From NCBI GenBank assembly GCA_043814605.1, contig JBDRJV010000037.1, positions 31,899 through 95,898 of the forward strand: a DNA stretch of 64,000 nucleotides, written 5' to 3'. The stretch's first letter is position 1. Each line of letters opens with the position of its first letter. The translations under genes and the position numbers were made by a program. Of the stretch, positions 54-54,290 are shown piece by piece. Under the pieces are notes generated by a model that saw only the letters and a list, made by a program, of their open reading frames with translations, was not told where the DNA came from and did not search any database. This stretch comes from Candidatus Omnitrophota bacterium (lineage in GTDB: Bacteria > Omnitrophota > Gorgyraeia > B26-G9).

Positions 54-833
54 ATGAAAAAAATAGATAATCGTAATTTATTTAAAAGATCACTTGATTG
101 GTTATTTAAAGAAGAAGATAATTCTTCTCAAAACTCGAGTGAAGAAGAAATCATTGAAATAAATATTTGGCAAATAGTAATAATTTTTATTCTGGTAGCC
201 GGGTTATTCTTGTTAAATATTTATCCTAAAATTGCAAAAAAATTTTTTCAAAGGCACAAAAATAGTAATTTTTCTTATGAATATATTGAAGAAAATATTG
301 AAAAAAATTATTTTGCTGGTAATCAAACAATTAAAAATGGTGATTTTAGCCAAGGGCTTATACACTGGAGCACATCTGATGGGGGAAAAGTTTTTAGAAA
401 TTCAAAGAGTAAAATGACTTTAGAAAAAAATGATTTTCATTCACCTCCCTACGCAATGAAAATCGAATCAATCGTACCGGCAAATCGATATTACTATACT
501 AAAACTGAGAATAGTGCGGTTATCAATAGTGCTTTTGATTTTTACGAAACTGAGCATTGGTTGGGTATTCTCCCTCAAGTTAATGCTAAATTGAGTTTGT
601 GGTATAAGGGGGATGTGCCGCGTGTATCATTGCACTGTCTGGATAAAAGGGGCAAATGGATAGGCTTAGGATCTGTTTCCGGGCCAGCTACAGATGAGTG
701 GACATATTTAGAAATTATGAAAAAAATACCGGAAAATGGCCGGGCGATAACATTTGATATTGTTTTAAATCAGGCTCAAGGCATGCCTCTTCCTGTAATT
801 ATCGTAGATGATGTTTTTTTATCAGTCGAGTAA
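54..833 (+). CDS. Membrane-anchored protein with a C-terminal CBM4_9/galactose-binding-like (jelly-roll) domain
   Basis: 259 aa ORF with the RBS-like aaaggagaa just upstream. It has one N-terminal TM helix (IWQIVIIFILVAGLFLLNIY). The C-terminal region opens with NGDFSQGLIHW, resembling the NG-x-FE-x-G-x3-W signature of CBM4_9-type domains. Motif-level call only. Confidence 0.4.
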   Translation: MKKIDNRNLFKRSLDWLFKEEDNSSQNSSEEEIIEINIWQIVIIFILVAGLFLLNIYPKIAKKFFQRHKNSNFSYEYIEENIEKNYFAGNQTIKNGDFSQGLIHWSTSDGGKVFRNSKSKMTLEKNDFHSPPYAMKIESIVPANRYYYTKTENSAVINSAFDFYETEHWLGILPQVNAKLSLWYKGDVPRVSLHCLDKRGKWIGLGSVSGPATDEWTYLEIMKKIPENGRAITFDIVLNQAQGMPLPVIIVDDVFLSVE

Positions 834-836
834 AAT

Positions 837-2510
837 ATGAGAGAAACTATAAATTTAAAACAAAACATAGATTCAAATAAAACATTTATAACTTTGCTTG
901 CTGTATTATTAGCATTCCACTTTTTTAGTAATGCTTATTTATTAACCAAAAATCCCTTACCAGAAGGTAAGGACAGTTATGCGCACATTATGGGTTATTT
1001 GAATTTTTCTGATATTTTACAACAACGAACCAAGAGTTTATTTTACCAACCAGAGAAAAGTTTATTTTATAACATATTTTTTTCTGTTTTTGACTATCCG
1101 GTATTTTTTTATTTAACTGTTTTTTTTATAAATATGATTTTCGGTAATTTTATATTTTATTGTATAATTTTTACTTCAACAGTATTTTTTTTACTGCTGT
1201 TAATCGCAGTTTATAAAATCGGATGTTTTCTCAACCCGCAAACAGGTATTTTAGCTGCGGTAATTTGTTCTTCTTTCCCGATTGTTTTTATTACAGCGCG
1301 ACATTTTAATTTAGAAATAGCTCTGAGTGCTTTAGTTTGTGTAAGTATCTGGATGCTATTAAGAACAAATTTTTTTACAGAACGCTTATTTTCTATTTTA
1401 CTGGGTATTATTTTAGGTTTAGGGATGTTAACGAAACAGTCTTTCCTGATATATGTTTTAGGACCGATCGCCATAATTTTATACAAATGTTTAGTAGTTC
1501 GCGATCGCGATATATTTTTTACAAGCATTAGGAATATTATTTTTTGCTTTGCAATTGCACTGCTTTTAAGCTTTTATTTTTATAGCCAAGGCGATATTTA
1601 TATGAATATTAACACAAGAATAAACTTTACTGGTGCAGTTAACGGCAATAATATTTTTCAAACACAACATTTGATGTATTATGTAAAATCATTAACATTA
1701 AGTTTAGGCTGGGGATTTACTTTGCTGTTAATATTTTCTTTATTTAGTATCAGGAAAATTACTCAACCGCTGCGGTTTTTACTAATTGCCTGGTTTATAT
1801 TTCCGTTATTAGTTTTTACTTTTATAAAAATTAAATATACTGAATATTCTATTGCCTATCTACCGGCAGCAGCGATAATTTCCGGATCAGCAATCAGTTT
1901 AATTAGAAATATTAAATTAAAAAAAATTTTAATAATTAGTATTTTAGTTATGGCTACAGTGAATTTTTTTATGTTATCTTATTTTAATTTTAAATCATTT
2001 TTTACCACATATTATTACCAAAATCTCAAAGGGGAACTTATTGAGAGTGATCAGATCACTGGGATAAGTCAGATCGAAAGGAAAACAGAATTTAAGGATT
2101 TGTTAAAAAAATTAGGCAATTCTGGCAAAGCAATAGGAATTTTTTATGATGATATAAACCTGCAATTCCCGGCTTATTTCACCAGGTTTATTAGTGTAGA
2201 AACAAAAAAACAAGTTCAAATATTGGATATGCTATTTCGCATCCCTTTATTTTTCAACAAGTTAGATCGGATTGACAGTTTAATTTTTGTTTCCTGCTCA
2301 GGGCAGGATTGGATCAGCGAGAAATCTTTTTTTAAGTTTGAGCAGGATTTAAATAAACAAACTTTTTACAGATACAAATTTAGACCGTATTTTTTGGAGA
2401 GAATCCTGGCGGCTAAAAAAAATTTTATATTAACGCACAAACTAGGTTTTGAAACCACAGGGAATAAATTGCAAAAGGAAAATATTTTTATTTATAAAAG
2501 GATGCCTTAA
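837..2510 (+). CDS. Polytopic GT-C-type glycosyltransferase (ArnT/PMT_2-like)
   Basis: 557 aa with many hydrophobic helices over the first ~380 aa, then a soluble C-terminal domain. The first loop contains an acidic residue (PLPEGKDSYAH). The architecture is typical of polyprenol-phosphate-sugar-dependent GT-C enzymes. It starts 4 bp after the previous gene. Confidence 0.5.
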   Translation: MRETINLKQNIDSNKTFITLLAVLLAFHFFSNAYLLTKNPLPEGKDSYAHIMGYLNFSDILQQRTKSLFYQPEKSLFYNIFFSVFDYPVFFYLTVFFINMIFGNFIFYCIIFTSTVFFLLLLIAVYKIGCFLNPQTGILAAVICSSFPIVFITARHFNLEIALSALVCVSIWMLLRTNFFTERLFSILLGIILGLGMLTKQSFLIYVLGPIAIILYKCLVVRDRDIFFTSIRNIIFCFAIALLLSFYFYSQGDIYMNINTRINFTGAVNGNNIFQTQHLMYYVKSLTLSLGWGFTLLLIFSLFSIRKITQPLRFLLIAWFIFPLLVFTFIKIKYTEYSIAYLPAAAIISGSAISLIRNIKLKKILIISILVMATVNFFMLSYFNFKSFFTTYYYQNLKGELIESDQITGISQIERKTEFKDLLKKLGNSGKAIGIFYDDINLQFPAYFTRFISVETKKQVQILDMLFRIPLFFNKLDRIDSLIFVSCSGQDWISEKSFFKFEQDLNKQTFYRYKFRPYFLERILAAKKNFILTHKLGFETTGNKLQKENIFIYKRMP

Positions 2511-3572
2511 ATGCTGCAAAGTATATATTTTCAATTAAATAATTTTATGGCTTTTTACAATCTTTTTTCAGTACGGCAAGCAGCCAGTTTTTTACAAAAT
2601 TTGCCGTTATCAATTAATTTATTGAGAACGGCAAAGTGTAATTTAAATTGCCGGATTTGCTCAGCTAAAGACATGCTTAATATAGGGAATGAATTAACCA
2701 CGGGTGAAATCATCAGCTTTATTGAAAAAAATGCAGAGTATAAACCGATTTTTTTTATCGGAGGAGGAGAACCTTTTATCCGTAAGGATATCCTGGAATT
2801 TGCCAGAGTGTTCAGCCGGAATAAATTAAAATACGGGATTGTTACTAATGGGACTTTGCTTAATCCCGAAATTATGGGTGAATTGTTCAATAATAAATTA
2901 AATGTGCTGATTTTTTCTTTACATGGCAATCAGCTGCAGCATGATAAGGTGACCGGTAAAAGTGGGGCATATAGTTTAATTAGTAATAATATAAAATTTG
3001 CTGCGAAAAATAAGAAAAGTACTAAAATAATTTTAAATTTTGTAATAAATGAGGAGAATTATTTACAGCTTGAGCAAATTATTAAATTTGGAAAAAATCA
3101 AGGAGTAAATCAAGTAAGAATTGAGCATTTAATTTTTTTAACAAAAAATGAATACAAGCAGCATTTAGAAGTTTGCCGGAAACTTTTTCCAAAGAACAAT
3201 ACAAATCTTGTAATTTTTAAAAAGGATATTAATAATTTGGAAATTGGTGATTTTTTAAAAAAAGAGATACCTCGCTTAAAAAAGAAATACAAAAATTTTG
3301 TTTTATTTAAACCGCATTTGAGTCAAGCTGAAATTGAATCATGGTATTGTGAGAATTTTCAATTAAATCGTAAGTGTTTTTTTGTGCAGCATTCAGTTTT
3401 TGTAAACCCAAACGGAGATATTGTTCCCTGTCAGTTTTTAGGAAATTATAAACTAGGGAATATCAAGGAGGTTGAGTTAGTTGATGCCTGGCGAAATAAA
3501 GCCAGTCAAAATATTAAAAAAACTTTAAAGCAAAAGATTTTACCCGGATGTAACCGATGCTGTAAATTATGA
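2511..3572 (+). CDS. Radical SAM enzyme with C-terminal SPASM/twitch-like Cys-rich domain
   Basis: CxxxCxxC motif in RTAKCNLNCRICSAK and a GGE motif in FIGGGEPFIRKD. C-terminal cysteines occur in NPNGDIVPCQFL and LPGCNRCCKL. Confidence 0.8.
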   Translation: MLQSIYFQLNNFMAFYNLFSVRQAASFLQNLPLSINLLRTAKCNLNCRICSAKDMLNIGNELTTGEIISFIEKNAEYKPIFFIGGGEPFIRKDILEFARVFSRNKLKYGIVTNGTLLNPEIMGELFNNKLNVLIFSLHGNQLQHDKVTGKSGAYSLISNNIKFAAKNKKSTKIILNFVINEENYLQLEQIIKFGKNQGVNQVRIEHLIFLTKNEYKQHLEVCRKLFPKNNTNLVIFKKDINNLEIGDFLKKEIPRLKKKYKNFVLFKPHLSQAEIESWYCENFQLNRKCFFVQHSVFVNPNGDIVPCQFLGNYKLGNIKEVELVDAWRNKASQNIKKTLKQKILPGCNRCCKL

Positions 3573-4117
3573 AAATTTTGTTAAATAAAAGTTATAACTT
3601 ATTAAGGGATATATATTTAGAAAGCATTAATTTTACGGATAAAACTAAGCTTTTAGATATCGGTTGCGGTTTGAGGGGTAATTTTCTAAAGCTGCCTAAA
3701 TTTGTGTATACAGGTGTTGATGCTAATAAACATATTATTGCTAAATTGAGAAAGAAATCAGATGGGCTATATGAGTGTATGGATGCGAATGATTTAAAAT
3801 TTGAAAATAACTTTTTTGATTACATAATATCAACGAGTTTTTTCCATCATTGCTCAAAGAATAATATTCGTGCGATAGTAGAGCAAATAAAAAAGATTTT
3901 AAAAGATTCGGGAAAAATAATTATTGCAGATGGGGTATATCCGGATTCTAAAATTAATATTTTAGGATATTTAATTAGATTTTTTGACCGGGGTAGATTC
4001 GTGAGAAGAAAAGATGAATTCAGAGAGTTATTTGAGAATTTTTTTATTGTTAAAAAAGAAGTTTATTTTGTGAATAAGTTTTTTGCATATTACGTATTAG
4101 TAATGGAAAAAAAATAA
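3569..4117 (+). CDS. Class I SAM-dependent methyltransferase (small, Methyltransf_11-like)
   Basis: Motif I is LLDIGCGLRGN. An acidic post-I residue and FDYIISTSFFHHC are present. ATGA overlap with the upstream gene. It resembles the second small methyltransferase at 53697-54290 (FDYIILNNVLHHM). Confidence 0.7.
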   Translation: MKILLNKSYNLLRDIYLESINFTDKTKLLDIGCGLRGNFLKLPKFVYTGVDANKHIIAKLRKKSDGLYECMDANDLKFENNFFDYIISTSFFHHCSKNNIRAIVEQIKKILKDSGKIIIADGVYPDSKINILGYLIRFFDRGRFVRRKDEFRELFENFFIVKKEVYFVNKFFAYYVLVMEKK

Positions 4118-4118
4118 G

Positions 4119-5560: not shown

Positions 5561-7057
5561 ATGTCAAATAAAATCACTAAAAGCAGCATCATTTTAATCC
5601 TGATAATAACCGCGATCTTTATAGGTTTAAGATTATTTTTATTACTGGACACGGATACTTTTCATGGTATTGCCGCAGGAAGAACTTTGCTTGCAGAATT
5701 AATATTAAGGAACGGTTTTTATTCAAAGTTATGCTTTGTTCCCGTACATCCGCCAATACATACAGTTATGCTAGTTGCGGGATTGTTTATCTGGAATAAT
5801 CCGATAATTTTACCTGGGTTAGTAAGTTTATTTTTCGGGACGCTTACTTGCCTTCCTTTTTATTACTATAACAAAAGTGTTTTTGATGAAAAAGTGGCTG
5901 TATTTTCGCTAGCAGCAATTAGTTTGTATTCTGATCATATTGCTTATAGTATTATTGGGACTTCAGAAACAATTTTTCATTTTTTTCTTTTCAGTAGTTT
6001 AGTTTTTGCTTTATTTTTTAAAAAAAACAAGAATATGCGGTATTTTTATCTGAGTGCAATAATGATTTCAATAGCTAGTTTATGCCGGTATGAAGGAATA
6101 ATATTTATCCCTTTTTTTTCTGTTTTTTTAACTAAGAAAATAAAAAATATTATTCTCTTTCTAATTGTTTCTTTAATTTTACCGGGTATATGGATGTGCG
6201 TAAATTTTTATTTTACCGGAAATTTTATATATTTTTTAAATACTAATGATATTACCGTACCTTTACAATTTAATTGGATGCGGTTGCAGGGGCTAGATAT
6301 AAACGTTACTTATAAAATTCTATTTTGGCCGCGAGTTTTAATCAATACAATAGGAGTATTTTTTCTTTTTTTTGGACTTGGGGGAGTTATCTTTTGTTTA
6401 AAGAGAGGAGAAAAATTATTTCCGGCAGGATTAGTCATATTTATATTATGTTTATTTGTATTAAGAACTTATCAAGAAAAACTCTATTTGCAGACTCGCT
6501 ACGGCATAACCATTGGTTTATTATTAATTCCTTTTGCAATTTACTTTTTTCAGGTTACTGTTAAAAAGATTAATCGTAACTTGCCGGACTGGTTAGTTTT
6601 ATTTTTACTTTTGACCCTGATTCCTGCCTGGGGAAAGACACTTTCCCAGGAAAGCTTATTTCTCCCGGATACAGTTAAAAATATAAGCAGTTTTTTAGGT
6701 AAAGAAGTTAAAGAAAATGAAAATATTTTTATAACTTCAGAACAAAATGAAAATTATCGTGAAGTGATAAAATTAAGAAGCCGTCTTAATCCTAAACAAT
6801 TTATACTAATTCCGTATCTTGAGCCGTATGAAAACAAATTTATTATAAAACTGGAAACATTTTTTCAATATTTAGAAAAAGAGAATATTAAGTTTTTTGT
6901 CTATTCTCCAGAGGGAGAGTTAGGAAATATTCTGAAATTTGAGGGAAAAGGGGAAAAGTTTAATATGAATGGGTTCTGGTTCAAGCTTATTTATAAAAAT
7001 AGATTATATCATATTTATAAGGTAGACCCTTTAAAAGAGGGGGTAGAAGATGTTTAA
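5561..7057 (+). CDS. Polytopic GT-C-type glycosyltransferase (tandem paralogue of 4119-5555)
   Basis: 498 aa. It carries TDTFHGIAAGR, CRYEGI and QTRYGITIG blocks collinear with the upstream gene. Multi-TM with a soluble C-terminus. Confidence 0.5.
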   Translation: MSNKITKSSIILILIITAIFIGLRLFLLLDTDTFHGIAAGRTLLAELILRNGFYSKLCFVPVHPPIHTVMLVAGLFIWNNPIILPGLVSLFFGTLTCLPFYYYNKSVFDEKVAVFSLAAISLYSDHIAYSIIGTSETIFHFFLFSSLVFALFFKKNKNMRYFYLSAIMISIASLCRYEGIIFIPFFSVFLTKKIKNIILFLIVSLILPGIWMCVNFYFTGNFIYFLNTNDITVPLQFNWMRLQGLDINVTYKILFWPRVLINTIGVFFLFFGLGGVIFCLKRGEKLFPAGLVIFILCLFVLRTYQEKLYLQTRYGITIGLLLIPFAIYFFQVTVKKINRNLPDWLVLFLLLTLIPAWGKTLSQESLFLPDTVKNISSFLGKEVKENENIFITSEQNENYREVIKLRSRLNPKQFILIPYLEPYENKFIIKLETFFQYLEKENIKFFVYSPEGELGNILKFEGKGEKFNMNGFWFKLIYKNRLYHIYKVDPLKEGVEDV

Positions 7058-8282
7058 ATTGTGCCGAGGCCGAATAATATTTTCAATGGATATATTCGGA
7101 GATTTAATTAAAAGTTTTTTTAGTAAAAAAAATAATGGAGAGTTAACTATTAAAAAATTTGAAGATGATTTTGCTCAATATATTGGCAGTAAACATGCAG
7201 TTGCGGTTGCTTCGGGTAAGATGGCATTGTATTTAACGTTGAAGGCATTAGGCGCAAAGGAGGGGGATCAGATTATTATTCCTGCCTATACAGTTAGCGA
7301 AGTTATTGATGTAATTATTCTTTGTAAATTAATACCGGTTTTTGTGGATATTAATCTTAAAGACGCGAATATTGATGTATCCTTGATTGAAAAAAGAATT
7401 ACTCCGAATACTAAATTTATCTTAATGGTACATATGTTTGGATGCCCCTGTGACATTGATGAAATAATTGCAATAAGCAAAAAATATAATCTTAAAGTTA
7501 TTGAAGATGGAGCTCAGAGCTGTGGGGCTGAATATAAAGGAAAAAAAATAGGAAGTTTTGGTGATATTGGGTATTTTAGCTTTGGCATCATGAAAAATTT
7601 AAATACATTAGGCGGGGGAATGATTGTAGCGCAAAATTCTGATCGAATAAATTTTATTAGAAAACAGATAAATAAGTTTTCTGAAAATTTGATGGGGCAA
7701 CTTTTTAAAAAAACGGTTTTAGTTTTTTTTGTATCTATACTAACTACGCCGGTTATATTCTCATTTGTAGTATATCCGTTACTATTTATTATCGAAGAGA
7801 ACAGAAGAGAAAAAATATTTAAGAGTTTATTTAAAGCTAGACCTGTAACAGCACAGTGTATGGAAAAGCTAAAAGTAAAATTTTCTCCTTATCAAGCGGC
7901 GATTGGCATAGCCGGCCTTAAAAAAATTGAACAGATAAATCAAAAGCGGATAAATAATGCTAAAGTTCTAAATCAGGCTCTTAATAATATCGATGGTGTT
8001 TCTTTGATTAAAGAATCAAGTGATTCAAAAAACATTTATTTAAACTATGTGATCCGCATTAATAACAGACAAAAACTAATTAATCGTATGTTTAATAAAG
8101 GAATTGATGTAAGTGCGGGGTTTATTGAATGCTGTCCGGATTTAGCCAGATTTGAGCTTTACCAGTGCGATTGTCCTAGAAGCAGGATTTGGGAAAAAGA
8201 AAATCTATATTTACCGGTTTATCATCCGCTGAAAAGAGAAGTAATGATAAAAATTTCGAAATTAATAAAGGAAGCATTGTGA
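7050..8282 (+). CDS. DegT/DnrJ/EryC1/StrS-family PLP-dependent sugar aminotransferase with an internal hydrophobic insertion
   Basis: AVASGKMALYLTLKALGAKEGDQIIIPAYT, VIEDGAQSCGAEYKGKKIGSFGDIGYFSFGIMKNL (candidate PLP lysine) and GGGMIV match the family. An alternative start is at 7086 (MDIFGDL). Confidence 0.8.
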   Translation: MFKLCRGRIIFSMDIFGDLIKSFFSKKNNGELTIKKFEDDFAQYIGSKHAVAVASGKMALYLTLKALGAKEGDQIIIPAYTVSEVIDVIILCKLIPVFVDINLKDANIDVSLIEKRITPNTKFILMVHMFGCPCDIDEIIAISKKYNLKVIEDGAQSCGAEYKGKKIGSFGDIGYFSFGIMKNLNTLGGGMIVAQNSDRINFIRKQINKFSENLMGQLFKKTVLVFFVSILTTPVIFSFVVYPLLFIIEENRREKIFKSLFKARPVTAQCMEKLKVKFSPYQAAIGIAGLKKIEQINQKRINNAKVLNQALNNIDGVSLIKESSDSKNIYLNYVIRINNRQKLINRMFNKGIDVSAGFIECCPDLARFELYQCDCPRSRIWEKENLYLPVYHPLKREVMIKISKLIKEAL

Positions 8283-8296
8283 AAAATAATCATAGC

Positions 8297-9676
8297 ATGG
8301 AGGGTGGTTTGAATATAATTAAGAATGCCTTACGAGGAGTCGGCGGGTTATTTTTATTAGCTTTTTTTGTGCGGCTTGGTTTTTTAATGAGTTCTGATAA
8401 TTTTTACGGATTTGGGCCGATGTTAAATATTATTACCGCATTAAAGGCTTTTAATTATTTTTCTTTTTTTGAAAATATTTATTTCTGCCCTTTACCCTTT
8501 TATTTATATTCACTGGTTTTTTCAGTATGGATGGGAACGGAACAAATTATTTGCGCACAGTTTTTAAGTTTATTATTCGGCAGTTTAAGCATACCAATTT
8601 TTTATTTATTTGTAAGAAAAAATTTCAATAAACTAATCGCTTTTTATGCCGCATTAATTTTGTGTTTTTATCCGGCCCATATCATAATGAGTATTATTAC
8701 AAGCGCGGATAGTATAGGTTTTTTTCTTTTACTTGTTTGTTTAAATCTAATTTTAAATAAAAATTATTTTTACGCATCAATAATATTAGCAATAAGTTGC
8801 GGATTTACCTATTTAGCATGGGTTTTTGTGCTGATTTTAAATTTATTTATGTTTATCCAATCGGATAAAAAAAATATAAAAAAAATAATAAAATTATTTT
8901 TTTTCAGTATAATTAGTTGTTCTGTTCCTGCAGCTATCATAGTTTTAATCAAGATTAAATATTGCTCGCAAGGGCTTTTTTACAGGAATTTTTATTTAGC
9001 AGACTCATTTATGCGCTACATAATAAATTATGGCAATACGGTTAAAATCGCAATCAGGGCTTTGTTAATGCAGCCGGTTTCGGGATTTTTCCTGGTTAGT
9101 TTAATCGGAGTTTTTTTCTTTTTAAAACAAAAAAGGATAAAGTGTTATGATTTAATTTTTTTATTTGGACTCACATTAATATTGATTTGTTTAGGGATAT
9201 TTAGAGATGAAATTTGCATTTTAGGTCAGGGTGTAAACTTTTTATCAATCATGTGCATACCTTTTTTTGTTTTTGCCGTTACATCCATATTGCAAAAATT
9301 TAAAATAAAAAAGATAATCTTTGTTTTAATTTGCATTTTTTGTTTGATTTTGTTTTTAGTCAGTACTTGTTTAAAACCGAAATTACCGGAAAAAGTAAAA
9401 GAATTGAGTGCCTGGCTAAAAGAAAATATTGATGAGAAAACCAAAATTTATATAAACAAGGATGAAACAGGGTATTATAGTTCAATTATCATGCTTAGCG
9501 GTCTGCCGCAGGGTAATTTTAAATATTATAATAGCTTTGATGATTTTTCTGGCCAGGTTGATGCTGAGGATAATTATCTTATTCTTAGTCTGGAGCAATA
9601 TAGTCAAGCTAAAAATGTTCCGGGTGAGAATTTAATAGTTTTAGAAGGTTATTCTGTATATAAATTAGATAACTAG
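8297..9676 (+). CDS. Polytopic GT-C-type glycosyltransferase (third member of the 4119/5561 family)
   Basis: The track ORF begins at 8189 inside the previous gene. Plausible real starts are GTG 8279 (GTGA overlap) or ATG 8297. SDNFYGFGPM and FLSLLFGSLSIPIFY blocks are collinear with 4119/5561. Multi-TM with a soluble C-terminus. Confidence 0.45.
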   Translation: MEGGLNIIKNALRGVGGLFLLAFFVRLGFLMSSDNFYGFGPMLNIITALKAFNYFSFFENIYFCPLPFYLYSLVFSVWMGTEQIICAQFLSLLFGSLSIPIFYLFVRKNFNKLIAFYAALILCFYPAHIIMSIITSADSIGFFLLLVCLNLILNKNYFYASIILAISCGFTYLAWVFVLILNLFMFIQSDKKNIKKIIKLFFFSIISCSVPAAIIVLIKIKYCSQGLFYRNFYLADSFMRYIINYGNTVKIAIRALLMQPVSGFFLVSLIGVFFFLKQKRIKCYDLIFLFGLTLILICLGIFRDEICILGQGVNFLSIMCIPFFVFAVTSILQKFKIKKIIFVLICIFCLILFLVSTCLKPKLPEKVKELSAWLKENIDEKTKIYINKDETGYYSSIIMLSGLPQGNFKYYNSFDDFSGQVDAEDNYLILSLEQYSQAKNVPGENLIVLEGYSVYKLDN

Positions 9677-9689
9677 ATTGTTAATAAAA

Positions 9690-10781
9690 ATGAAAATAAT
9701 TTTTATCACGCGAGAATCTAAAGAAATGCCAGCAGTGCGAGTCCGCAGCTATGGGTTTGCAAAATTTTTAGAAAAAGCAGGGTATGAAACTATAATTTTC
9801 TCTTATGCTGATAATTTAATGGCTGGAAGCGGAAAAAAAGAGGATAAGTTAAGTATTTTTGACAAAATTAAATATAATTTTAAAACTCTAAAATATCTTT
9901 CTTCTCAGAAAGCAATTTTAGTTTTACAAAGATGTAATTACCATTCTTTTGCGCCCTTACTGCTGGCATTATTGAACCGGAATAAGTTAATTTTCGACCT
10001 GGATGATTGGGAAGCGCGTGAAGATATTCATTATTATTTTAATAAAATCCCTAATTCAAAAGCAATAATTCTCTTATCGCTAATTGCGAGAAAGAGTAAA
10101 TTATGTATCGGCGCAAGCGATTTTTTATGTGAGTTTCTTTTGAATTATAATAAAAATATTTTAAAAATACCAACAGGTGTGGATGTGGAAAATTTTAAGC
10201 CGGATAAAAAGGATAATAATTTACAGCATATAGTATTGTCTTGGATTGGGACTATTTACCGCAAGGATAATCTGGAAAATTTAAAATTTCTTATAGATTG
10301 TTTTCAGGAGCTGTTTGCAGAATTTAATAATATCAGGCTTGAAATCGCCGGAGAGGGTATTTATGCAGATAAATTAATCGCGCTAATTAAAAATATTAAT
10401 AATCAAGATATCATTTTTAAAAACTGGATTAGTCCTGCGAAAATGCCGGATTATCTAAAGAATGTTGATATTGGCGTTATGCCTTTAACCCAAAATTCAA
10501 AATTTAATAAAGCGAAAAGCCCCACCCGCTTGTTTGAATATATGGCGATGGAAAAGGCAGTGGTGGCTAGTACTGTGGGAGAAGCACAAAAGATTATTAA
10601 AAACGGGGAAAATGGATTTTTAGCATCGACAAAAAGTGAGTTTGTTGCGTGCCTAAAAAAATTAATAGAAAATGAGCAGTTAAGGTTAACAATTGGCAGG
10701 TTCGCACGTAAAACAGTAATTGCAGATTATAATTTAAATAAAATTCCGGAAAAATTATTAGAATATATAGGGAAGATATAA
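9690..10781 (+). CDS. GT-B fold glycosyltransferase (GT4/GT1-like)
   Basis: The C-terminal block PTRLFEYMAMEKAVVASTVGEAQKIIKNGENGFL matches the E-x7-E nucleotide-sugar-binding region. ATG at 9690 is preferred over the TTG at 9678. Confidence 0.75.
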   Translation: MKIIFITRESKEMPAVRVRSYGFAKFLEKAGYETIIFSYADNLMAGSGKKEDKLSIFDKIKYNFKTLKYLSSQKAILVLQRCNYHSFAPLLLALLNRNKLIFDLDDWEAREDIHYYFNKIPNSKAIILLSLIARKSKLCIGASDFLCEFLLNYNKNILKIPTGVDVENFKPDKKDNNLQHIVLSWIGTIYRKDNLENLKFLIDCFQELFAEFNNIRLEIAGEGIYADKLIALIKNINNQDIIFKNWISPAKMPDYLKNVDIGVMPLTQNSKFNKAKSPTRLFEYMAMEKAVVASTVGEAQKIIKNGENGFLASTKSEFVACLKKLIENEQLRLTIGRFARKTVIADYNLNKIPEKLLEYIGKI

Positions 10782-10786
10782 AAAAA

Positions 10787-12253
10787 ATGAAAGTAGTTAT
10801 TGCAAACTCTATAGGTGTTGACAAAAATAACAATTTTATAATTCATTCTCCCAGTCGTTGGTCAGAAGGAGTTAAAAGTAAATCACATTGGTTTGCTTAT
10901 TATCCTTGGGAACTATCCTATTTATCCAGTTTATTAAAAAAAGAAACTGATTTTAATATTAAATTTTTAGATGGTTGTTTGATGCAATGGGATTCAGAAA
11001 CATATTTTTCTAAAATTACAACTATTAATCCAGATGTTTTGATTATGGAAAGTGCAACCAGAATGATTGATGAAAATGTTAATCTTGCTCGGCGCATTAA
11101 ACAAAAATGTCAGGCAACGATAATTTTTGTGGGCCAGCACGCCAGTGCTTTTCCACAAGAATTATTAACCCAGGGTATAGATTATGTTTGTATCGGAGAG
11201 TATGAATATACTGTGCTGGAATTGCTGCAGAATAAGGATAAGAGGCAGATTTTAGGGCTTTATCCTAATCCCAGAAGAGATTTATTAGATATTAACAGTT
11301 TACCCTGGCCTGAGGATTCTGACGTAAAACGTATTGATTATGCATCTCCGGGGGAACCGAGTTCAGAATATCGAGAAATTCAAATGTATGCATCCCGGGG
11401 TTGTCCGGGATCCTGCAGTTTTTGCGTTGCCAGGCACGTTTACTACAACCAGCCGAATTGGCGACCGAGAAAAATAGAAAACATTATTAGCGAAATTATT
11501 TATTTAAAAAATAAATATCCAAAGATGGAAGGAGTTTTTTTTGATGAAGAAGTTCATAATGGCAGAAAAGACTTTATCCTGGATTTAACGCAAGCCATAA
11601 TCGATGCAAAACTGAATAATTTAAAATATGAAGCGATGTGCGATGTAAGATTTTTAGATGAGCAGATCTTAGGAGCAATGAAAAGAGCTGGTTATTACAA
11701 GATCAGAATCGGCATTGAAACAGCAAGCCGGAAAATTATGCAGCAAATTAATAAAAAAATTGATTTAAAACAGGTTTTTAATCTGCTAAAGCTGGCCCAA
11801 AAAATTGGCATAAAAACCTACGGTACTTTTACTTTCGGAGCGCCGGGCTCTAATGAAACTGAGGATAAAAAAACAATTTTACTAATTCAAGATTTAATAA
11901 ATAATGATTATTTAGATAACTTACAGCTTTCAATTTGCACTCCTCAGCCAGGAACTCCTTTTTATGAAAAAGTAAAAGAAAATCATATGCTGCGAAATGA
12001 TTTAACTTTTAATATTTTTGACGGGGGGAATCATTGCATTATAAATTATCCAGATTATCATTATAAAATTATTGAAAAAACTAAACAAAATGCATTATTG
12101 ATGCGAGATCATTTTTTTTTAAAAAATAAAATTCAAAATAAGACTTTTTTCCAATGGATTGGGAATGTTTATAAAAAACATGGAGTTTTCAGAAGCGCGG
12201 CAAAGGCTTTTTTTAGAATATTAACAGAAATTAAATTTTATTTCGTAAAATGA
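10787..12253 (+). CDS. B12-binding-domain radical SAM enzyme (subfamily B)
   Basis: The N-terminal region is Rossmann-like (VLIMESATR..IIFVGQHASAFPQELL..YVCIGEYEYT). It carries the LPWPEDS motif and the radical SAM motif ASRGCPGSCSFCVAR. Confidence 0.8.
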   Translation: MKVVIANSIGVDKNNNFIIHSPSRWSEGVKSKSHWFAYYPWELSYLSSLLKKETDFNIKFLDGCLMQWDSETYFSKITTINPDVLIMESATRMIDENVNLARRIKQKCQATIIFVGQHASAFPQELLTQGIDYVCIGEYEYTVLELLQNKDKRQILGLYPNPRRDLLDINSLPWPEDSDVKRIDYASPGEPSSEYREIQMYASRGCPGSCSFCVARHVYYNQPNWRPRKIENIISEIIYLKNKYPKMEGVFFDEEVHNGRKDFILDLTQAIIDAKLNNLKYEAMCDVRFLDEQILGAMKRAGYYKIRIGIETASRKIMQQINKKIDLKQVFNLLKLAQKIGIKTYGTFTFGAPGSNETEDKKTILLIQDLINNDYLDNLQLSICTPQPGTPFYEKVKENHMLRNDLTFNIFDGGNHCIINYPDYHYKIIEKTKQNALLMRDHFFLKNKIQNKTFFQWIGNVYKKHGVFRSAAKAFFRILTEIKFYFVK

Positions 12254-13143
12254 TTGAAATCAGCATTGTTATTGTAACTTATTCTGCAGAGAAATTCATA
12301 AAAAATTGTTTAGATTCTGTTTTTGCGCAGGATTTAAATAATTTTGAAGTTATTATTATTGATAATAACTCTGGCGATAATACTATTAATATCTTAAAGA
12401 AATATTTGTCAAAAATAATTTTAATAGAAAATAAAAAAAATGAGGGTTTTTGTTTCGCAACTAATCAAGGCATATTACTTGCAAAAGGAAAATATATATT
12501 TACTTTAAATAGCGATGTTTACTTAAGTAAGGACTACGTTTTAAATTTAAAAAATTTTTTAGAAAGAAATTTAGAAGCAGGCATGGCAGGGGGTAAATTG
12601 TTAAGAATGGATAAAATAACTATCGATACTATCGGCCTAAAATTGGGGGTTTTTTATCGGTTCTTAAATATCGCAGAATCGGAGAAAGATACGGGTAAAT
12701 ATAAAGTTCCTTTAGAAATTATGGGTCCTTGTGCAGCCGCGGCCTTATATAAGCGGGAGCTTTTAGAGAGTATTAGATATAAGGATGAATTTTTTGATAA
12801 TCAGTTTTTTTTCTTGGCTGATGATTTTGATATTGCCTGGCGGGCACAGCGAATAGGTTGTAAGGGGTTTTATGTTCCAAATGCAGTTTGCTGGCATTAC
12901 CGGGATAGTTCAGGGCATAAATCCCAGTTCAAACAATACCTTTCATTCAGAAACAGGTATTATTTATTGATTAAAAATGCGGGTTTTAAAACTGTTTTTT
13001 TGTTTGCATTAGGTTTTTTATTTTATGATTTTCCCAGGCTGGTTTTTCTTTTAATAACTAATACTAAGTATACAGCGAAAGCAATAGCGGAAATTTTTAT
13101 GAATATGCCTGAAATTTTATCAAAGCGTGTAAAAAAAATATGA
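12250..13143 (+). CDS. GT2 glycosyltransferase (rhamnosyltransferase-like)
   Basis: ISIVIVTYSAEKFIKNCLDSV..VIIIDNNSGDNT, TLNSDV and DDFDIAWRAQRIGCKGFYVPNAVCWH match the family. Paralogue of 49120-50097. Confidence 0.8.
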   Translation: MIEISIVIVTYSAEKFIKNCLDSVFAQDLNNFEVIIIDNNSGDNTINILKKYLSKIILIENKKNEGFCFATNQGILLAKGKYIFTLNSDVYLSKDYVLNLKNFLERNLEAGMAGGKLLRMDKITIDTIGLKLGVFYRFLNIAESEKDTGKYKVPLEIMGPCAAAALYKRELLESIRYKDEFFDNQFFFLADDFDIAWRAQRIGCKGFYVPNAVCWHYRDSSGHKSQFKQYLSFRNRYYLLIKNAGFKTVFLFALGFLFYDFPRLVFLLITNTKYTAKAIAEIFMNMPEILSKRVKKI

Positions 13144-14252: not shown

Positions 14253-14826
14253 AAAAATAATTCAGATTTTAACAATAAGCATAATTTTTATTAGTTTCAA
14301 TAGGTATCTTTATGCAGAAAATTTATTTTATCCATTTGATGCCCGAGATATTACCGGGAAATGGCAGGAATCAGTAATCGAACAAGATGAGGTAATTAAG
14401 ACGGCATCCTTAAAAACAAAAGGAAAAATACAGTTAAATATCCCGGAAGATGGATTTTACCAATTATGCATTGAATTATATCACAATTGGCACAAATTCT
14501 GTCCTTTTATCTATTTTAATACGAGAGACAGCCAAGGAAAAACTTTTTCGGATTTTTTATTTTCAGAAAAACGATGGTATTTACCAGAAAATAGCGGCCG
14601 CTGGGAAATGAGGGCGCTGAGTGCAAATCCTTTTTGGTTTTTACATAAAGGTGAACTTAATATTGAATTCTGGCTCGAATCAAAACAATCTTGCTGGGAC
14701 AAACAGGATAAAGAAATAGAAGGAGAGTTTTATATTAAAAGATTTATTTTAGTAAAAGTTGATATGCTCGAAAAAAGCGATAAAAACTTTCAAACTAAAA
14801 ATTTAGAAAAAACAGAAGATTTTTAA
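14245..14826 (+). CDS. Secreted hypothetical protein
   Basis: 193 aa with an N-terminal signal-like helix (ILTISIIFISFNRYLYAEN). No recognisable motif. It overlaps the upstream gene by 8 nt. Confidence 0.4.
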   Translation: MFRKIIQILTISIIFISFNRYLYAENLFYPFDARDITGKWQESVIEQDEVIKTASLKTKGKIQLNIPEDGFYQLCIELYHNWHKFCPFIYFNTRDSQGKTFSDFLFSEKRWYLPENSGRWEMRALSANPFWFLHKGELNIEFWLESKQSCWDKQDKEIEGEFYIKRFILVKVDMLEKSDKNFQTKNLEKTEDF

Positions 14827-15675: not shown

Positions 15676-15814
15676 GAGATAATTAATCCGGTGAAGAGGA
15701 TTATTGCTAAACCCAATATAATATTTATTAAAAAATTAGGGACGGTTAAGTTTTAATTAGTTAAGATTTTTATATTTGAGTACAGTATTCCATAAAAGTT
15801 TAGAAAGAAAAGTT

Positions 15815-41972: not shown

Positions 41973-43166
41973 ATGTCTATTTCGAGAAGAAATTTTTTAA
42001 AAAATAGTTTAAAATTTTGTGCAGGAGTTGGATTATGCATCTTAACAAAAAGTTTCTGGGATAATTTTGAAAATACAGAAAGGATAGACAATTTTTTATT
42101 AAAAGAAGCAAAATATTATCGTAAAGGAAGTAACAATACTGTGCAATGCTTATTATGTGCCAGAAATTGTGTAATTAAGGATAAAAAAAGAGGGTTTTGC
42201 CAAGCCAGGATAAATAGTAAAGGTAAATTATTTAGTATGGTATACGGAAGTGTGATTATAACCCATTCAAAGGATAGACCGTTTAGGTCTTTGATTTATT
42301 TTGCTAATGATATTGAAGGGCTATGTATTGGTACAGCTGGATGTAATATGAGATGCAAGTTTTGTCTTGCCTCAGGAATTAGTCAGGTAAAACCTGAAGA
42401 TATTAAGATTAATAATAGATTTCCTTTTACTATGAATAAGAAACAAAATAAGACTCAGATTCTTCCAGATCAATTGATAAGCATGGCCAAAAAAAACAAT
42501 GTAAAATTAATTCATTTTAATCTTAATGAACCTACAATATATTATGAGTATATGCTAGATGTGGCAAAAATAGCGGTAAAAAATGGAATTTTTACAATGC
42601 TATGGAGCAATGCATATATAAATAGGGACCCTTTGCTTGAGTTAGCTCCTTATTTAGGCGGAGCGAGCATTGGATTGAAAGCTTTTAACAATGATATCTA
42701 TAAAAAGTTTTGCAGCGGAGAATTAAGTCCGGTTTTAGATACTTTAAAGTTGCTGAAAAAACAAAAAATTCCTTTTGAGATAATTTATCCAGTCATTCCG
42801 ACTGTTAATGATGATACTCAACAAATTAAAGATATGTGTTTTTGGATTAAAGATAAATTGGGTACGGAAGTGCCATTGCATTTTTATCGTTTCCTGCCTA
42901 GGTATAAATTAGTTAATTATCCTCCAACCCCTATCTCAACCTTGGAATCCATACAGAGTTTGGCTAAAAATACTGGTCTAAAATATGTATATGTTTTCTA
43001 TATGGGAGATTATCCTATCCCGGGCATGGAAGAAAAAATTTATTGTCCAAATTGTAAGAAATTAGTTTTATTACGTAAAAATTTAAATAATCTTGTAATA
43101 AATAATACGAAAAATTCCTGTTGTAAATTTTGCGGTGAAAAATTACTTTTTTTTATTTTTAAATAA
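41973..43166 (+). CDS. PflA/AmmeMemoRadiSam-like radical SAM enzyme with N-terminal twin-arginine signal and C-terminal zinc ribbon
   Basis: The N-terminus MSISRRNFLKNSLKFCAGVGLCIL carries the canonical S-R-R-x-F-L-K. AKYYRKGSNNTVQCLLCARNCVIKDKKRGFCQARINSKGKLF is the family-typical CxxCxxxC..G-x-C-x-x-R block. The radical SAM motif is GTAGCNMRCKFCLA. The C-terminus has CPNCKK..CCKFCGEKL. Confidence 0.7.
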   Translation: MSISRRNFLKNSLKFCAGVGLCILTKSFWDNFENTERIDNFLLKEAKYYRKGSNNTVQCLLCARNCVIKDKKRGFCQARINSKGKLFSMVYGSVIITHSKDRPFRSLIYFANDIEGLCIGTAGCNMRCKFCLASGISQVKPEDIKINNRFPFTMNKKQNKTQILPDQLISMAKKNNVKLIHFNLNEPTIYYEYMLDVAKIAVKNGIFTMLWSNAYINRDPLLELAPYLGGASIGLKAFNNDIYKKFCSGELSPVLDTLKLLKKQKIPFEIIYPVIPTVNDDTQQIKDMCFWIKDKLGTEVPLHFYRFLPRYKLVNYPPTPISTLESIQSLAKNTGLKYVYVFYMGDYPIPGMEEKIYCPNCKKLVLLRKNLNNLVINNTKNSCCKFCGEKLLFFIFK

Positions 43167-51755: not shown

Positions 51756-51757
51756 AG

Positions 51758-53491
51758 ATGAATTATGCTAAGTATAAGGCTTTTTGCAGAGTAATATATT
51801 GTTATCAAGAATATTGGATTTGGATTGTTTTAGGTATAATAATAAATATTCTAATATTGTTTGTTGTTAATAAGCTTTTAGAAAAGAGTAAGAATTTAAG
51901 CATTAAAAAGTATATAAAAAAAATAAATTTAAATAGAATTGATTATTTATTACTTTTTATGCTAACATTTATTTTTTTTATTTGGAAAATTACTAATATT
52001 AGTAAAGAAAATGTTGATAGTATGGAATCTTTCAACATGCAATTTAATTCTTTATTGAGTACAAATATTATAAAGTTTTTAGATACTTCAATAGTAATTG
52101 CACATAAGTTGATTTATGCAGTTATGCTTAATCTTGTACAAATATTTTGTGCTCCTGAAAATTTAGTTTTTTTGTATAGATTTATTTCTTTTGGTTTTGG
52201 AGTATTATGTTCTTTACTGCTGTTTAAATTTTCAATCAGAGTATTTCAGAATAAATTGATTGCATACCTAGGGTTCATTTTATTCAACTTAAATGCGCTT
52301 TTTTTGTTTTATTGCCGAAGAATTGAAGTTTATTCTATATTTTGTTTTTTTGTATTATTAAGTTTTTATGATTTCTGGAGAATATTTATTGATCGGGATA
52401 AAAATAAGACCTTACGATATGGCATATGGATAATTATTGTATTTTGCTTACATGATACAGGCGTTGTAGTTATTTTTTCGCAGGCTCTTGCTTTATTTTT
52501 TTTAAACAGGAAGCAGCCACTTGAAACTAGAAATTATTTATATTTAAAGTTTATGCAATCGGTACTTGTTTTTGCTTGTTTATTTTTTTTGTTGGGACCT
52601 ATTTTTTGTGCATCAATTATTAGTAATCATTTAATTCTTTACAAAGGTGCTTGGGAAAATAATTTTTATTTAGGTATGGAAAAATTACCGGAACAAATAA
52701 ATACTATGCTGAATTTAATTTTTGGGATGCCCATATTTACGATAGGGCTATTTAGTTTTCCCTTATTTTTTGCAGTTTTTTCGTTAATTAAAAAAAATAA
52801 TAATTTTTTTTGGCTTTTATTAAGCATATTGATATCAAGTATTCTATTTCAGGCAACTTTCATTTATATGTTTTATATTAAAGTTAATGCTTGTTATTTT
52901 AATATTAGGCATTTATTATGGATAGTTCCCTTTATTATCATGATGTATAGTTTTGGTTTTTGTGATTTATGTTTTTTGAGTAATAAAAATTATAAGAAAA
53001 TTTTAGGGTACAGTTTTTTAATTATTATTTTAAGCTCAGGAATTGTGAAATCAAATACTGTTATTTATAGCAATAAAACTCCTGATTACGAGAAAGCATT
53101 TTATTATATTAAAGATAAATTCAAAGATGGAGATTTTTTAGGTTGGCTGTGTTCTTTTACCAGTGATGTATTTTTTATTCACACTAAAAAAAATGATATT
53201 TTTTATGATCATGATAATACCATTTTAGATGAAAGAAGTGCCGGGGTTATATTTAATAATATCGCTTTAAAGCAAAAAAAATTTAAAAGATTTTGGGTGA
53301 TTGTTGCAAAAGAAGATTATTTTGGAGTTGATCATATGAATTTGGAATTTATTGATAAATGCGTTAATTTTTTAAAAAAAGAATTTAAAGAAATTTCTTG
53401 CGTGAAGATGAATAAAATTGATATCTACTTATTTGAATCAACTAGGGAAAGACTGGGGGGTATAATTGAAATTAACAGAAGAATTTTTTAA
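51758..53491 (+). CDS. Polytopic GT-C-type glycosyltransferase (ArnT/PMT_2-like)
   Basis: 577 aa with more than 10 hydrophobic helices, followed by a ~150 aa soluble C-terminal domain. Same overall architecture as the other six GT-C candidates. Architecture-only call. Confidence 0.4.
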   Translation: MNYAKYKAFCRVIYCYQEYWIWIVLGIIINILILFVVNKLLEKSKNLSIKKYIKKINLNRIDYLLLFMLTFIFFIWKITNISKENVDSMESFNMQFNSLLSTNIIKFLDTSIVIAHKLIYAVMLNLVQIFCAPENLVFLYRFISFGFGVLCSLLLFKFSIRVFQNKLIAYLGFILFNLNALFLFYCRRIEVYSIFCFFVLLSFYDFWRIFIDRDKNKTLRYGIWIIIVFCLHDTGVVVIFSQALALFFLNRKQPLETRNYLYLKFMQSVLVFACLFFLLGPIFCASIISNHLILYKGAWENNFYLGMEKLPEQINTMLNLIFGMPIFTIGLFSFPLFFAVFSLIKKNNNFFWLLLSILISSILFQATFIYMFYIKVNACYFNIRHLLWIVPFIIMMYSFGFCDLCFLSNKNYKKILGYSFLIIILSSGIVKSNTVIYSNKTPDYEKAFYYIKDKFKDGDFLGWLCSFTSDVFFIHTKKNDIFYDHDNTILDERSAGVIFNNIALKQKKFKRFWVIVAKEDYFGVDHMNLEFIDKCVNFLKKEFKEISCVKMNKIDIYLFESTRERLGGIIEINRRIF

Positions 53492-53696
53492 AAAAGGAAA
53501 ACTTAACGTGTTTTATAAGGGAAATTAAGTTTCCATTGCAAGTTTTTTTGAAATTAATAGTATTTCAAAAGAGAAATTGATCCGAACCATTATTAGAAGT
53601 GCTAAAGGTTCCAGAAATATCAGGGCTAAGAACTGATTTAAATTTTATACGATTGGAATTTAATATTTATTTTTTAAATATAAAACGCAAGAAATT

Positions 53697-54290
53697 ATGA
53701 AAAAAATTTATATAATTCTAAATTATTTACTCCAGTTTCTATCCTGTCCGATATCAGCTCATAAAAAATTTATTAGGAAGGAAATTGTTAAAGAAATAAA
53801 TATAAATTTAAAAAAAAATATTTTAGATTTTGGATGTGGTCACGGAATATTTTCTGGTCTTTTTAAAAATACAAATATCAATTATATTGAACTTGATTGT
53901 GATTTAAATTCACTGCTGTTTGCAAAATATATACATCAAAATAACTTATATTTGTGTGCAGGAGAATTGCTGTGTTTTAAGCAGAATATCTTTGATTATA
54001 TTATACTAAATAATGTTCTGCATCATATGGATAAAAAATCAATTATTAAATTATTTGACGAAATCATACGGGTGCTTAAAAATAAGAGAAAAGTTATAAT
54101 AATTGAATTGCTGCCTTTTGAAAAACAAAGAGGATTTTTTTTAAAAATTGTTACCTCTTTAGAAAAAAAAATAAAAAAAATTTCTTATGTTTCTGATGAT
54201 TTTTTAACAGAAATTGCAAAAAAATATTTTAGAAATATTAAAAAATTAGAAGTAAGCCGCAATTTTATTTCTTATATTTTAGAAAACTAG
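53697..54290 (+). CDS. Class I SAM-dependent methyltransferase (small)
   Basis: Motif I is ILDFGCGHGIFS, with ELDCD as the acidic loop and FDYIILNNVLHHM also present. Resembles 3569-4117. Confidence 0.65.
   Translation: MKKIYIILNYLLQFLSCPISAHKKFIRKEIVKEININLKKNILDFGCGHGIFSGLFKNTNINYIELDCDLNSLLFAKYIHQNNLYLCAGELLCFKQNIFDYIILNNVLHHMDKKSIIKLFDEIIRVLKNKRKVIIIELLPFEKQRGFFLKIVTSLEKKIKKISYVSDDFLTEIAKKYFRNIKKLEVSRNFISYILEN

Follow-up and report, generated by a model that had tools for sequence, protein, structure and literature searches.

A phylum-restricted gene island rich in radical SAM enzymes as a candidate GT-A/GT-C-type envelope-glycosylation locus in Omnitrophota

It is known that glycosylation systems of the GT-A/GT-C type, for example CsbB/GtcA/YfhO, Gtr and Arn, rely on a family 2 glycosyltransferase (GT2) that makes a polyprenyl-monophosphate sugar, which is then flipped and transferred by a GT-C enzyme; these systems need no phosphoglycosyltransferase (PGT), Wzx/Wzy or Wzz, and the flippase gene is in many cases unlinked or not known (PMC8035078). 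There is also a case of a GT-A enzyme without transmembrane (TM) helices, and the existence of a separate partner that binds the acceptor has been suggested (PMC8035078). Here we consider a stretch of 64,000 nucleotides from a Candidatus Omnitrophota bacterium (contig JBDRJV010000037.1; hereafter, the window), in which positions 54-54290 are occupied by a gene island, and compare this island with these and other described systems.

The reading that we favour, with about even chances of being right, is that of a fast-diverging envelope-glycosylation island specific to Omnitrophota and of the GT-A/GT-C type, using polyprenyl-monophosphate donors, and not one of the undecaprenyl-diphosphate (Und-PP) repeat-unit type. 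As a system of the GT-A/GT-C type would not need a PGT, a Wzx flippase or ATP-binding cassette (ABC) exporter, Wzz or an acetyltransferase, the apparent paradox of the genes missing from the island would be explained by a glycosylation logic that does without them. No description of this cluster type was found in the searchable literature.

Glycosyltransferases and the missing polysaccharide functions

The island consists of exactly 43 open reading frames (ORFs) of at least 100 aa, all on the + strand, nearly contiguous and almost gapless; each is named here by its start coordinate in the window (o54, o18949, etc.), and related contigs are denoted by L numbers. Besides 20 radical S-adenosylmethionine (SAM) genes, it comprises seven GT-C-like membrane transferases, one Wzy_C protein, three GT2 (one of them ArnC/DPMS-like), one GT1, three DegT aminotransferases, a polysaccharide deacetylase, a WbqC-like protein, two small SAM methyltransferases, two proteins with hydrophobic signal-like N-termini, and a DUF362 protein with a signal like those of the twin-arginine translocation (Tat) pathway. 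With 20 of the 43 genes encoding radical SAM enzymes, the label of a glycan-type locus, given in a preliminary description of this DNA, undersells it.

The same description listed as missing a priming transferase, a flippase or exporter, a chain-length regulator, acyl, acetyl and formyl transferases and the genes of nucleoside-diphosphate (NDP) sugar synthesis, and pointed to three aminotransferases, which we found as three DegT proteins (PF01041). All 43 products were scanned against Pfam (E<=0.01), and 40 of the 43 against NCBIfam. In these scans there was no WecA/MraY-type or WbaP-type PGT; no Wzx/MurJ-type flippase and no ABC or ABC-2 (Wzm/Wzt) exporter; no Wzz; no acyl, acetyl or formyl transferase; and no sugar nucleotidyltransferase, dehydratase or epimerase, so that the list of missing functions held. 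A hidden Markov model search with PF00953, PF02397, PF01943, PF01061 and PF16363, proposed in that description as a check for cryptic members, gave zero Pfam matches among the 43 island products. The six ORFs without a Pfam match were rescanned at E<=10, with nothing relevant found. The sole gene of the PF00953 superfamily in the window is mraY (63178 onward), which belongs to the division and cell wall (dcw) cluster and not to the island, and the small flippase family of the GtrA/GtcA/ArnEF type was found neither in the window (Pfam) nor in the related loci. The largest intergenic gap (41591-41973) has no ORF longer than 31 aa outside the neighbouring genes, and no gap would fit another gene.

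Since o8189, o18949 and o51758 are multi-TM proteins without a Pfam match, they were the only places where a cryptic exporter could hide. The product of o8189 (8189..9676; about 10 TM segments, no significant Pfam match) aligns by blastp with those of o4119 and o5561 at 1e-12 to 1e-15; it is a paralog of the PMT_2 GT-C enzymes and hence was rejected as a flippase candidate. Its longest ORF overlaps o7050 by 94 nt, hence the true start is probably further downstream.

The second candidate, o18949 (18949..20805; locus tag ABIG64_08675), is the YfhO-like GT-C glycosyltransferase that serves as the marker gene of this cluster type. The protein itself has no Pfam match even at E<=10, PF09586 (YfhO) included. 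Among 5.8 billion proteins it has 17 homologs, all named ones from Omnitrophota; four of the 17 carry PF09586, and one is named as a YfhO family protein by NCBI. In the AlphaFold model built with 15 sequences (predicted local distance difference test, pLDDT, 78; predicted template modelling score, pTM, 0.83), the ten top PDB matches are all GT-C enzymes (PglB, ALG12, AftD, ArnT, DPY19, Pmt4, AftA), and the probability for transporters does not exceed 0.25. The GT-C fold is thereby the predicted fold of o18949, and the flippase alternative was discarded for this protein as well.

The case of o51758 (51758..53491; about 11 TM segments; locus tag ABIG64_08795) is weaker. Its single homolog, P0033, carries PF13231, and hhalign against the PMT_2 paralogs of the window gives 73% probability (E 3e-5). 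The AlphaFold model from a two-sequence alignment (pLDDT 37) was unusable, and because of this failure the assignment is less firm than for the other two. We conclude that o51758 probably is a GT-C and that a cryptic flippase is probably ruled out here too.

The remaining GT-C genes are of the PMT_2 type, with PF13231 above its cutoff in four island proteins. They include a GT-C-fold glycosyltransferase at 837..2510 (about 13 TM segments; PF13231 at 33 bits, above the cutoff), its paralog o15776 (15776..17362; PF13231), and two tandem PF13231 paralogs at 4119-5555 and 5561-7057, which are 35% identical (blastp 1e-63). Thus, the island holds seven GT-C-like membrane transferases, of which o51758 is the weakest assignment. 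As the scans were negative, the multi-TM ORFs are GT-C-like and the gaps are too small, the absence of the listed functions stands.

The candidate donor-forming enzyme is the ArnC/DPMS/GtrB-like GT2 o38154 (38154-38918), which matches ArnC in PDB (8vxh, 4.7e-17), as well as DPMS and GtrB; its best NCBIfam match is also ArnC, at 75 bits with a cutoff of 529, and further polyprenyl-phosphate sugar synthases are among its best relatives. Two other GT2 genes were assigned by family match, one at 49120-50097 and one at 12250-13143, the latter within a conserved four-gene module. The GT1 is a GT-B glycosyltransferase (Glycos_transf_1, GT4-like; PF13692, PF00534) at 9678..10781. The membrane protein o50091 (50091-51755) is Wzy_C/O-antigen-ligase-like; at 42 bits against a cutoff of 31.7 for PF04932, it belongs to the family of Wzy polymerases and WaaL-type ligases, and it may act as a ligase.

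Related loci and the chromosomal site

A scan with a 9-sequence alignment of the YfhO-like protein, run on one genome per GTDB species, yielded 11 loci, of which 10 come from metagenome-assembled genomes (MAGs) titled Omnitrophota and one from an "uncultured bacterium". Homolog look-ups added three contigs, and synteny was established by blastp. In all 14 related contigs, the named ones all being from Omnitrophota, we observed a common mix of GT-C, DegT, GT2 and radical SAM genes. Thus, among named relatives the island is restricted to Omnitrophota. Of the 13 contigs with the YfhO-like GT-C, all but L015 (12 of 13) have a gene of the o18132 family immediately upstream of that GT-C. Downstream of the GT-C the recurring core consists of B12-binding and Tes-like radical SAM genes, a DegT gene, a radical SAM/SPASM gene, further B12-binding genes, an ArnC-like GT2 and another DegT gene; in L015 this core is present in a compact stretch of about 11 genes and 15 kb. 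In L004 (JAPLLW010000015.1, 1-2003), a product of 1048 aa, whose gene runs off the end of the locus, has a radical SAM and two GT2 domains fused in a single chain, a physical link of radical SAM chemistry to glycosyl transfer.

If the locus were a classical Und-PP O-antigen or exopolysaccharide locus, the missing genes would be situated upstream of position 1 or elsewhere, and the GT-C enzymes would add only side decorations. The presence of Wzy_C, of the GT1 and of GT2s unlike ArnC is consistent with this possibility, and the window begins inside the gene array, with the 5' boundary outside it. However, the missing functions were seen in none of the 14 related contigs within approximately 10 kb of the marker gene, hence over about 20 kb around it, and in none of the precomputed annotations of L003, L004, L006, L019 and L020. 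The compact 15-kb stretch of L015, with a contig that extends 3.7 kb further, retains the conserved set without these functions, and seven GT-C genes together with 20 radical SAM genes are atypical of a repeat-unit locus. We therefore consider a classical locus unlikely.

Genes of the relatives without a homolog in the window belong, by Pfam, to asparagine synthase-like amidotransferases, DUF6541 and PMT_2 membrane proteins, GDSL esterases, a GFO/IDH/MocA oxidoreductase, methyltransferases and glycoside hydrolases. The amidotransferases, of approximately 630 aa, recur in L009, L012, L013, L014, L017 and L019 and are absent from the window. Of 11 multi-TM ORFs in the relatives, three are singletons and the others form two groups, one of DUF6541 proteins and another with three members; the Pfam family counts cover most of the 11, not provably all. 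In L009 (JBDRPX010000003.1), two pairs of o18132-like and YfhO-like genes are located approximately 6 kb apart (2982-5698 and 9052-11770).

The island is followed by the dcw cluster (54531..64000, + strand), which comprises mraZ, rsmH, an ftsL-like gene, the PBP3 gene, murE, murF, a DUF3108-like gene, a gene for a 482-aa protein and mraY; the latter is partial, from 63178 to the window end, and matches MraY in PDB (9zno, 4e-71). In L011, the closest relative, YfhO-like, GT2 and Wzy_C genes likewise close the island, with mraZ directly downstream. Between the window and L011, the island proteins are 34-47% identical, versus 59-86% for MraZ, RsmH, PBP3 and FtsL. The fixed site and the difference in identity indicate a fast-evolving island, the pattern of a surface-antigen locus.

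The G+C content of the window DNA is 25-33%. It drops to 24.6-24.8% at 50001-54000, the end of the island with the Wzy_C and probable GT-C genes, versus 33-35% in the adjacent dcw genes. A promoter and terminator scan of the AT-rich window gave counts at or below the shuffle expectation and was uninformative. Within the dcw cluster (59524-64000), two genes intervene between murF and mraY: one encodes a 234-aa DUF3108-like protein (60954-61658), o18132, the partner of the GT-C, likewise being distantly DUF3108-like, and the other encodes the 482-aa protein, with a weak TPR match (61682-63130).

Radical SAM enzymes, aminotransferases and the other island genes

The 20 radical SAM genes comprise nine B12-binding, six GDGT-MAS/Tes-like, two SPASM and three other ones, and the CX3CX2C motif is intact in all 20. 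The six Tes-like paralogs have the zinc-ribbon/rubredoxin-like domain PF23545. Four of them (PF23545, PF04055), 56-60% identical, are arranged in tandem (23388-24746, 24753-26135, 26145-27512 and 27509-28855), and the fifth (30448..31851) and the sixth (33882..35222) were assigned by family match. The first of the tandem genes, o23388, matches GDGT-MAS in PDB (7tol) at 3.5e-40 and the NCBIfam Tes model at 7e-44. At the same time, all six score 123-150 bits with the Tes model (NF045702), the cutoff being 450; judging by these scores, the PF23545 paralogs are not Tes equivalogs.

The motif definitions for the rubredoxin-like domain and the radical SAM core were taken from PMC9433317. Both the rubredoxin-like CX2C-X20-CX2H and the CX3CX2C motifs are conserved in all six paralogs. 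In GDGT-MAS, the N-terminal auxiliary [4Fe-4S] cluster is held by C73, C77 and C80 plus a His (PMC9433317); in the segment from the rubredoxin-like domain to the radical SAM motif, the six paralogs have no conserved Cys motif, and the spacing there is approximately 20 residues shorter than in GDGT-MAS. The HMMER alignment stops before the C-terminal auxiliary-cluster region of GDGT-MAS (conserved Met439 and Tyr459). The six paralogs share conserved Cys residues at 139, 313, 412 and 425 (o24753 numbering), of which Cys 313, 412 and 425 could be cluster ligands at a C-terminal site. All six also have a strongly hydrophobic stretch at residues 345-385 or so, which could be a membrane or lipid contact surface.

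The nine B12-binding enzymes have sub-threshold best NCBIfam matches to HpnJ, BchE, a lipid-biosynthesis B12 family and ApyD. For o10787 (10787-12253) and o43235 (43235-44644) the best match is HpnJ, at 152 and 193 bits, respectively, far under the cutoff of 578. The others, assigned by family match, are located at 20818-22284, 28860..30458 (BchE-like), 35228-36715 and 36739-38199 (two paralogs with orthologs in L001, L014 and L015), 40167..41591 (BchE/HpnJ-like), 44660-46144 and 47388-48833. Family matches with an intact motif also place a MoaA/NirJ-like enzyme at 22287-23339 and a PTO1314-like one at 46178-47167. The AmmeMemoRadiSam-type o41973 (41973..43166; TIGR04337 at 231 bits, cutoff 220) has a Tat-like, twin-arginine N-terminal extension (MSISRRNFLK...) ahead of the region matched by the family model; for a radical SAM enzyme, export or membrane anchoring would be unusual.

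These matches raise the alternative of membrane-lipid remodelling, in which the Tes-like and B12-binding (GrsA/HpnR/ladderane-like) enzymes would build spanning, cyclised or methylated lipids, and the glycosyltransferases and aminotransferases would make the head group. The similarity of o23388 to GDGT-MAS and Tes points in this direction, as do the matches of the B12-binding enzymes to HpnJ, HpnR and the lipid-biosynthesis model TIGR04072, and the rubredoxin-like motif and hydrophobic C-terminal stretch of all six Tes-like paralogs; membrane-spanning-lipid genes have also been reported in Omnitrophota in the literature. However, the scores lie far under the family cutoffs (150 versus 450 bits for Tes), and the N-terminal auxiliary motif of GDGT-MAS (PMC9433317) is absent. 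Moreover, the window and its relatives have no glycerolipid, ether-lipid or isoprenoid synthesis genes, and the radical SAM genes are always accompanied by GT-C, DegT and GT2. Hence lipid remodelling seems to us quite unlikely.

The three DegT/DnrJ/EryC1 sugar aminotransferases are o7050 (7050..8282; PF01041 at 1e-73, with LegC/ArnB/PseC-like NCBIfam matches below the cutoffs), o31866 (31866-32933; PF01041 at 1e-91) and the ArnB/PseC-like o38925 (38925-40139; PseC 369 and ArnB 360 bits, below the cutoffs). The gene of o38925 is adjacent to that of the GT2 o38154, and a GT2/DegT pair is found side by side also in L001, L014 and L015, where the DegT resembles o38925 most in L001 and o7050 most in L014 and L015. 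The gene o31866 overlaps o32930 (32930-33895), which encodes a radical SAM/SPASM protein (PF04055, PF13186), and DegT and radical SAM/SPASM genes of these types are adjacent also in L001, L006 and L015. The best PDB match of o32930 is the radical SAM dehydrogenase BtrN, a weak match (3e-10) that covers residues 15-136 only. This pair may oxidise a substrate and then aminate it, and it provides the most concrete lead on the keto-sugar substrates. The second SPASM gene, o2511 (2511..3572; PF04055, PF13186), has NCBIfam matches all below the cutoffs.

The similarity of the BtrN-like enzyme beside a DegT to BtrN/BtrS of butirosin synthesis, together with AprD4-like matches and NCBIfam matches to ApyD and to C-methyltransferases of ribosomally synthesised peptides with post-translational modifications (RiPPs), would also be expected if the island made a secondary metabolite, either a RiPP matured by the radical SAM/SPASM enzymes and B12 C-methyltransferases, or an aminoglycoside- or aminocyclitol-like compound. 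In L003 (JAKLQT010000198.1), a called gene of 56 aa at 3037-3207 closely precedes a radical SAM/SPASM gene, an arrangement like that of a RiPP precursor and its maturase, which may be counted in favour of the same possibility. Against it, no convincing ORF for a precursor peptide is present in the window's two largest intergenic gaps, and the Pfam scans of the 43 products revealed neither a peptidase or exporter nor a 2-deoxy-scyllo-inosose synthase or resistance gene. The seven periplasm-facing GT-C enzymes and Wzy_C indicate envelope assembly, and the fixed chromosomal site beside the dcw cluster also argues against this alternative, which we regard as highly improbable.

The other island genes are as follows. 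The first one, o54 (54..833), encodes a 259-aa protein with one TM segment and no Pfam or NCBIfam match; its C-terminal region (GDFSQGLIHWS...) resembles a carbohydrate-binding module by eye only, without support from profile models. Class I SAM methyltransferases are encoded at 3569..4117 (PF08241 and related families) and, as the last island gene, at 53697..54290 (PF13489, PF08241). The four-gene module (10787..14826) consists of the B12-binding radical SAM gene o10787, the GT2 gene at 12250-13143, the DUF362 gene o13140 (13140-14252), whose product has a Tat-like, twin-arginine N-terminus (MKKFTRREFLQKG...), and, as the last gene (14245-14826), one whose 193-aa product begins with a hydrophobic, signal-like stretch; this order recurs wholly or partly in L012, L013, L018 and L006. 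It is followed by the polysaccharide deacetylase gene (14833..15675; Polysacc_deac_1 and DUF3473, PF01522 and PF11959; TIGR03006 at 118 bits, below the cutoff), a deacetylase recurring in L020 as one of the YdjC family. The WbqC-like protein (17362..18063; PF08889 at 254 bits) recurs in L006, L008, L009, L015 and L019, and a literature search on WbqC gave nothing useful. Finally, o18132 (18132..18968), the upstream partner of the YfhO-like GT-C, encodes a 278-aa, distantly DUF3108-like protein with a hydrophobic signal-like N-terminus; its family has 40 relatives among 1.84 billion representatives, with PF11306 matches in 10 of 24 relatives, all sub-threshold.

Proposed route and comparison with known systems

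The gene families and the synteny, the lack of the listed functions, the restriction to Omnitrophota and the predicted GT-C fold of o18949 are direct results of the analysis; for all chemical steps, the lipid carrier and the acceptor we infer the following. Housekeeping NDP-sugars (e.g. UDP-N-acetylglucosamine), made outside the island, would be loaded onto polyprenyl phosphate by o38154, and the product may be extended by the other GT2 enzymes and the GT1. Tailoring would take place at the cytoplasmic face: the deacetylase would strip the N-acetyl group, the BtrN-like radical SAM/SPASM enzymes would convert a secondary alcohol to a ketone, which the adjacent DegT enzymes would then aminate, and the nine B12-binding enzymes with the six Tes-like paralogs could introduce C-methyl groups, C-C bonds or rearrangements. 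An unlinked flippase, supplied like the NDP-sugars from outside the island, would carry the lipid-linked sugar across the membrane, where the seven GT-C enzymes (the YfhO-like o18949 with o18132, plus six PMT_2-like ones) would transfer it to periplasmic acceptors, the Wzy_C protein being a possible ligase.

The favoured reading draws on the best relatives of o38154, which are ArnC, DPMS and GtrB, on its ArnB/PseC-like neighbour o38925, and on the recurrence of a deacetylase in the window and in L020. The preliminary description had left three explanations of the missing genes. The best supported of them is that of an acceptor other than a classical repeat-unit polysaccharide, given the seven GT-C enzymes and the ArnC/DPMS/GtrB-like GT2. 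Substitution by radical SAM enzymes would be plausible for one step only, that of the DegT o31866 and the BtrN-like o32930, and encoding elsewhere must still hold for the supply of NDP-sugars and for the flippase.

Several observations weigh against this reading. The GT2 o38154 has no TM helices, so that the C-terminal ones of ArnC and GtrB are missing, and its ArnC score is far under the cutoff (75 versus 529 bits). A GtrA/ArnE-type flippase was found in no locus examined. As Wzy_C proteins normally use Und-PP-linked glycans, a PGT and a flippase would be needed somewhere. Aminotransferases of the ArnB/PseC-like type normally act on NDP-4-keto sugars formed by dehydratases, which are absent in the island, and the match to BtrN is weak and covers the radical SAM core only. 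In addition, up to two multi-TM ORFs in the relatives may stay without a family assignment, and the 5' boundary of the island is outside the window and outside every locus of the relatives that was seen.

A bolder extension of the same reading, to which we give a small but not negligible chance, is an Omnitrophota class of envelope glycoconjugates not seen before, in which a lipid-linked amino sugar would be rebuilt by radical SAM enzymes and installed by dedicated GT-C enzymes. The formation of C-C bonds, on sugars linked to polyprenyl or lipids or between such sugars, would fall to the Tes-like enzymes, and the addition of multiple C-methyls or the contraction of rings to the B12-binding ones, so that an anaerobic radical route would replace the toolkit of NDP-sugar dehydratases and epimerases. 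If so, Tes-like genes in bacterial MAGs need not mean tetraether lipids.

The absence of the listed functions would be an ordinary consequence of the system type; it is the radical SAM load and the presence of Tes-like paralogs in a glycan context that are noteworthy. The island is conserved, confined to one phylum and exceptionally dense in uncharacterised radical SAM enzymes, which account for 20 of its 43 genes and are tied to glycosyl transfer. In homology screens, Tes homologs of bacterial MAGs are taken to indicate a potential for branched glycerol dialkyl glycerol tetraethers (brGDGTs) or tetraethers (PMC11868695), and the six Tes-like paralogs in a glycan context imply that such matches can mislead. 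In its compact L015 form, of about 11 genes, the island has a size suited to heterologous expression. Omnitrophota are believed to rely on contact with hosts or prey, and a surface-antigen-like island may bear on this lifestyle.

The hopanoid module HpnI/HpnK/HpnJ combines a GT2 with a deacetylase and with a radical SAM enzyme of the B12 type, the latter rearranging a lipid-linked glucosamine. The island resembles it in that HpnJ is the best NCBIfam match of o10787 and o43235, with a GT2 and a deacetylase adjacent, and the YdjC deacetylase of L020 belongs to the HpnK family; the deacetylase of the window is of the Polysacc_deac_1 type instead, there are no hopanoid genes in the island, and the HpnJ scores are far under the cutoff. 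The second parallel is BtrN/BtrS of butirosin synthesis, where a radical SAM dehydrogenase is followed by a DegT-family aminotransferase, and the gene of o32930, a protein with an auxiliary-cluster domain, likewise overlaps that of a DegT. BtrN has a shorter "twitch" domain, whereas o32930 has a full SPASM domain; the island also differs in the weakness of the match (3e-10 over the N-terminal core only) and in having no aminocyclitol genes. With GDGT-MAS/Tes (PDB 7TOL; PMC9433317) the paralogs share the N-terminal rubredoxin-like CX2C-X20-CX2H motif, the radical SAM core and the hydrophobic C-terminal region. They differ from it in forming a set of six, approximately 450 aa each, without the N-terminal auxiliary motif, and in their bacterial glycan-type context as opposed to archaeal lipid synthesis.

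The closest comparison is with the GT-A/GT-C systems CsbB/GtcA/YfhO, GtrB/GtrA/Gtr* and ArnC/ArnEF/ArnT with ArnB and ArnD. The island differs from them in having seven GT-C genes, no GtrA or ArnE/F and a GT2 without TM helices, and from the Arn system also in having no ArnA-type dehydrogenase or formyltransferase; its 20 embedded radical SAM genes are matched by no described system of this kind. What it has in common with them are the YfhO- and PMT_2-type GT-C enzymes and the ArnC/DPMS/GtrB-like GT2 and, with the Arn system in particular, an ArnB-like DegT and a deacetylase of the ArnD superfamily.

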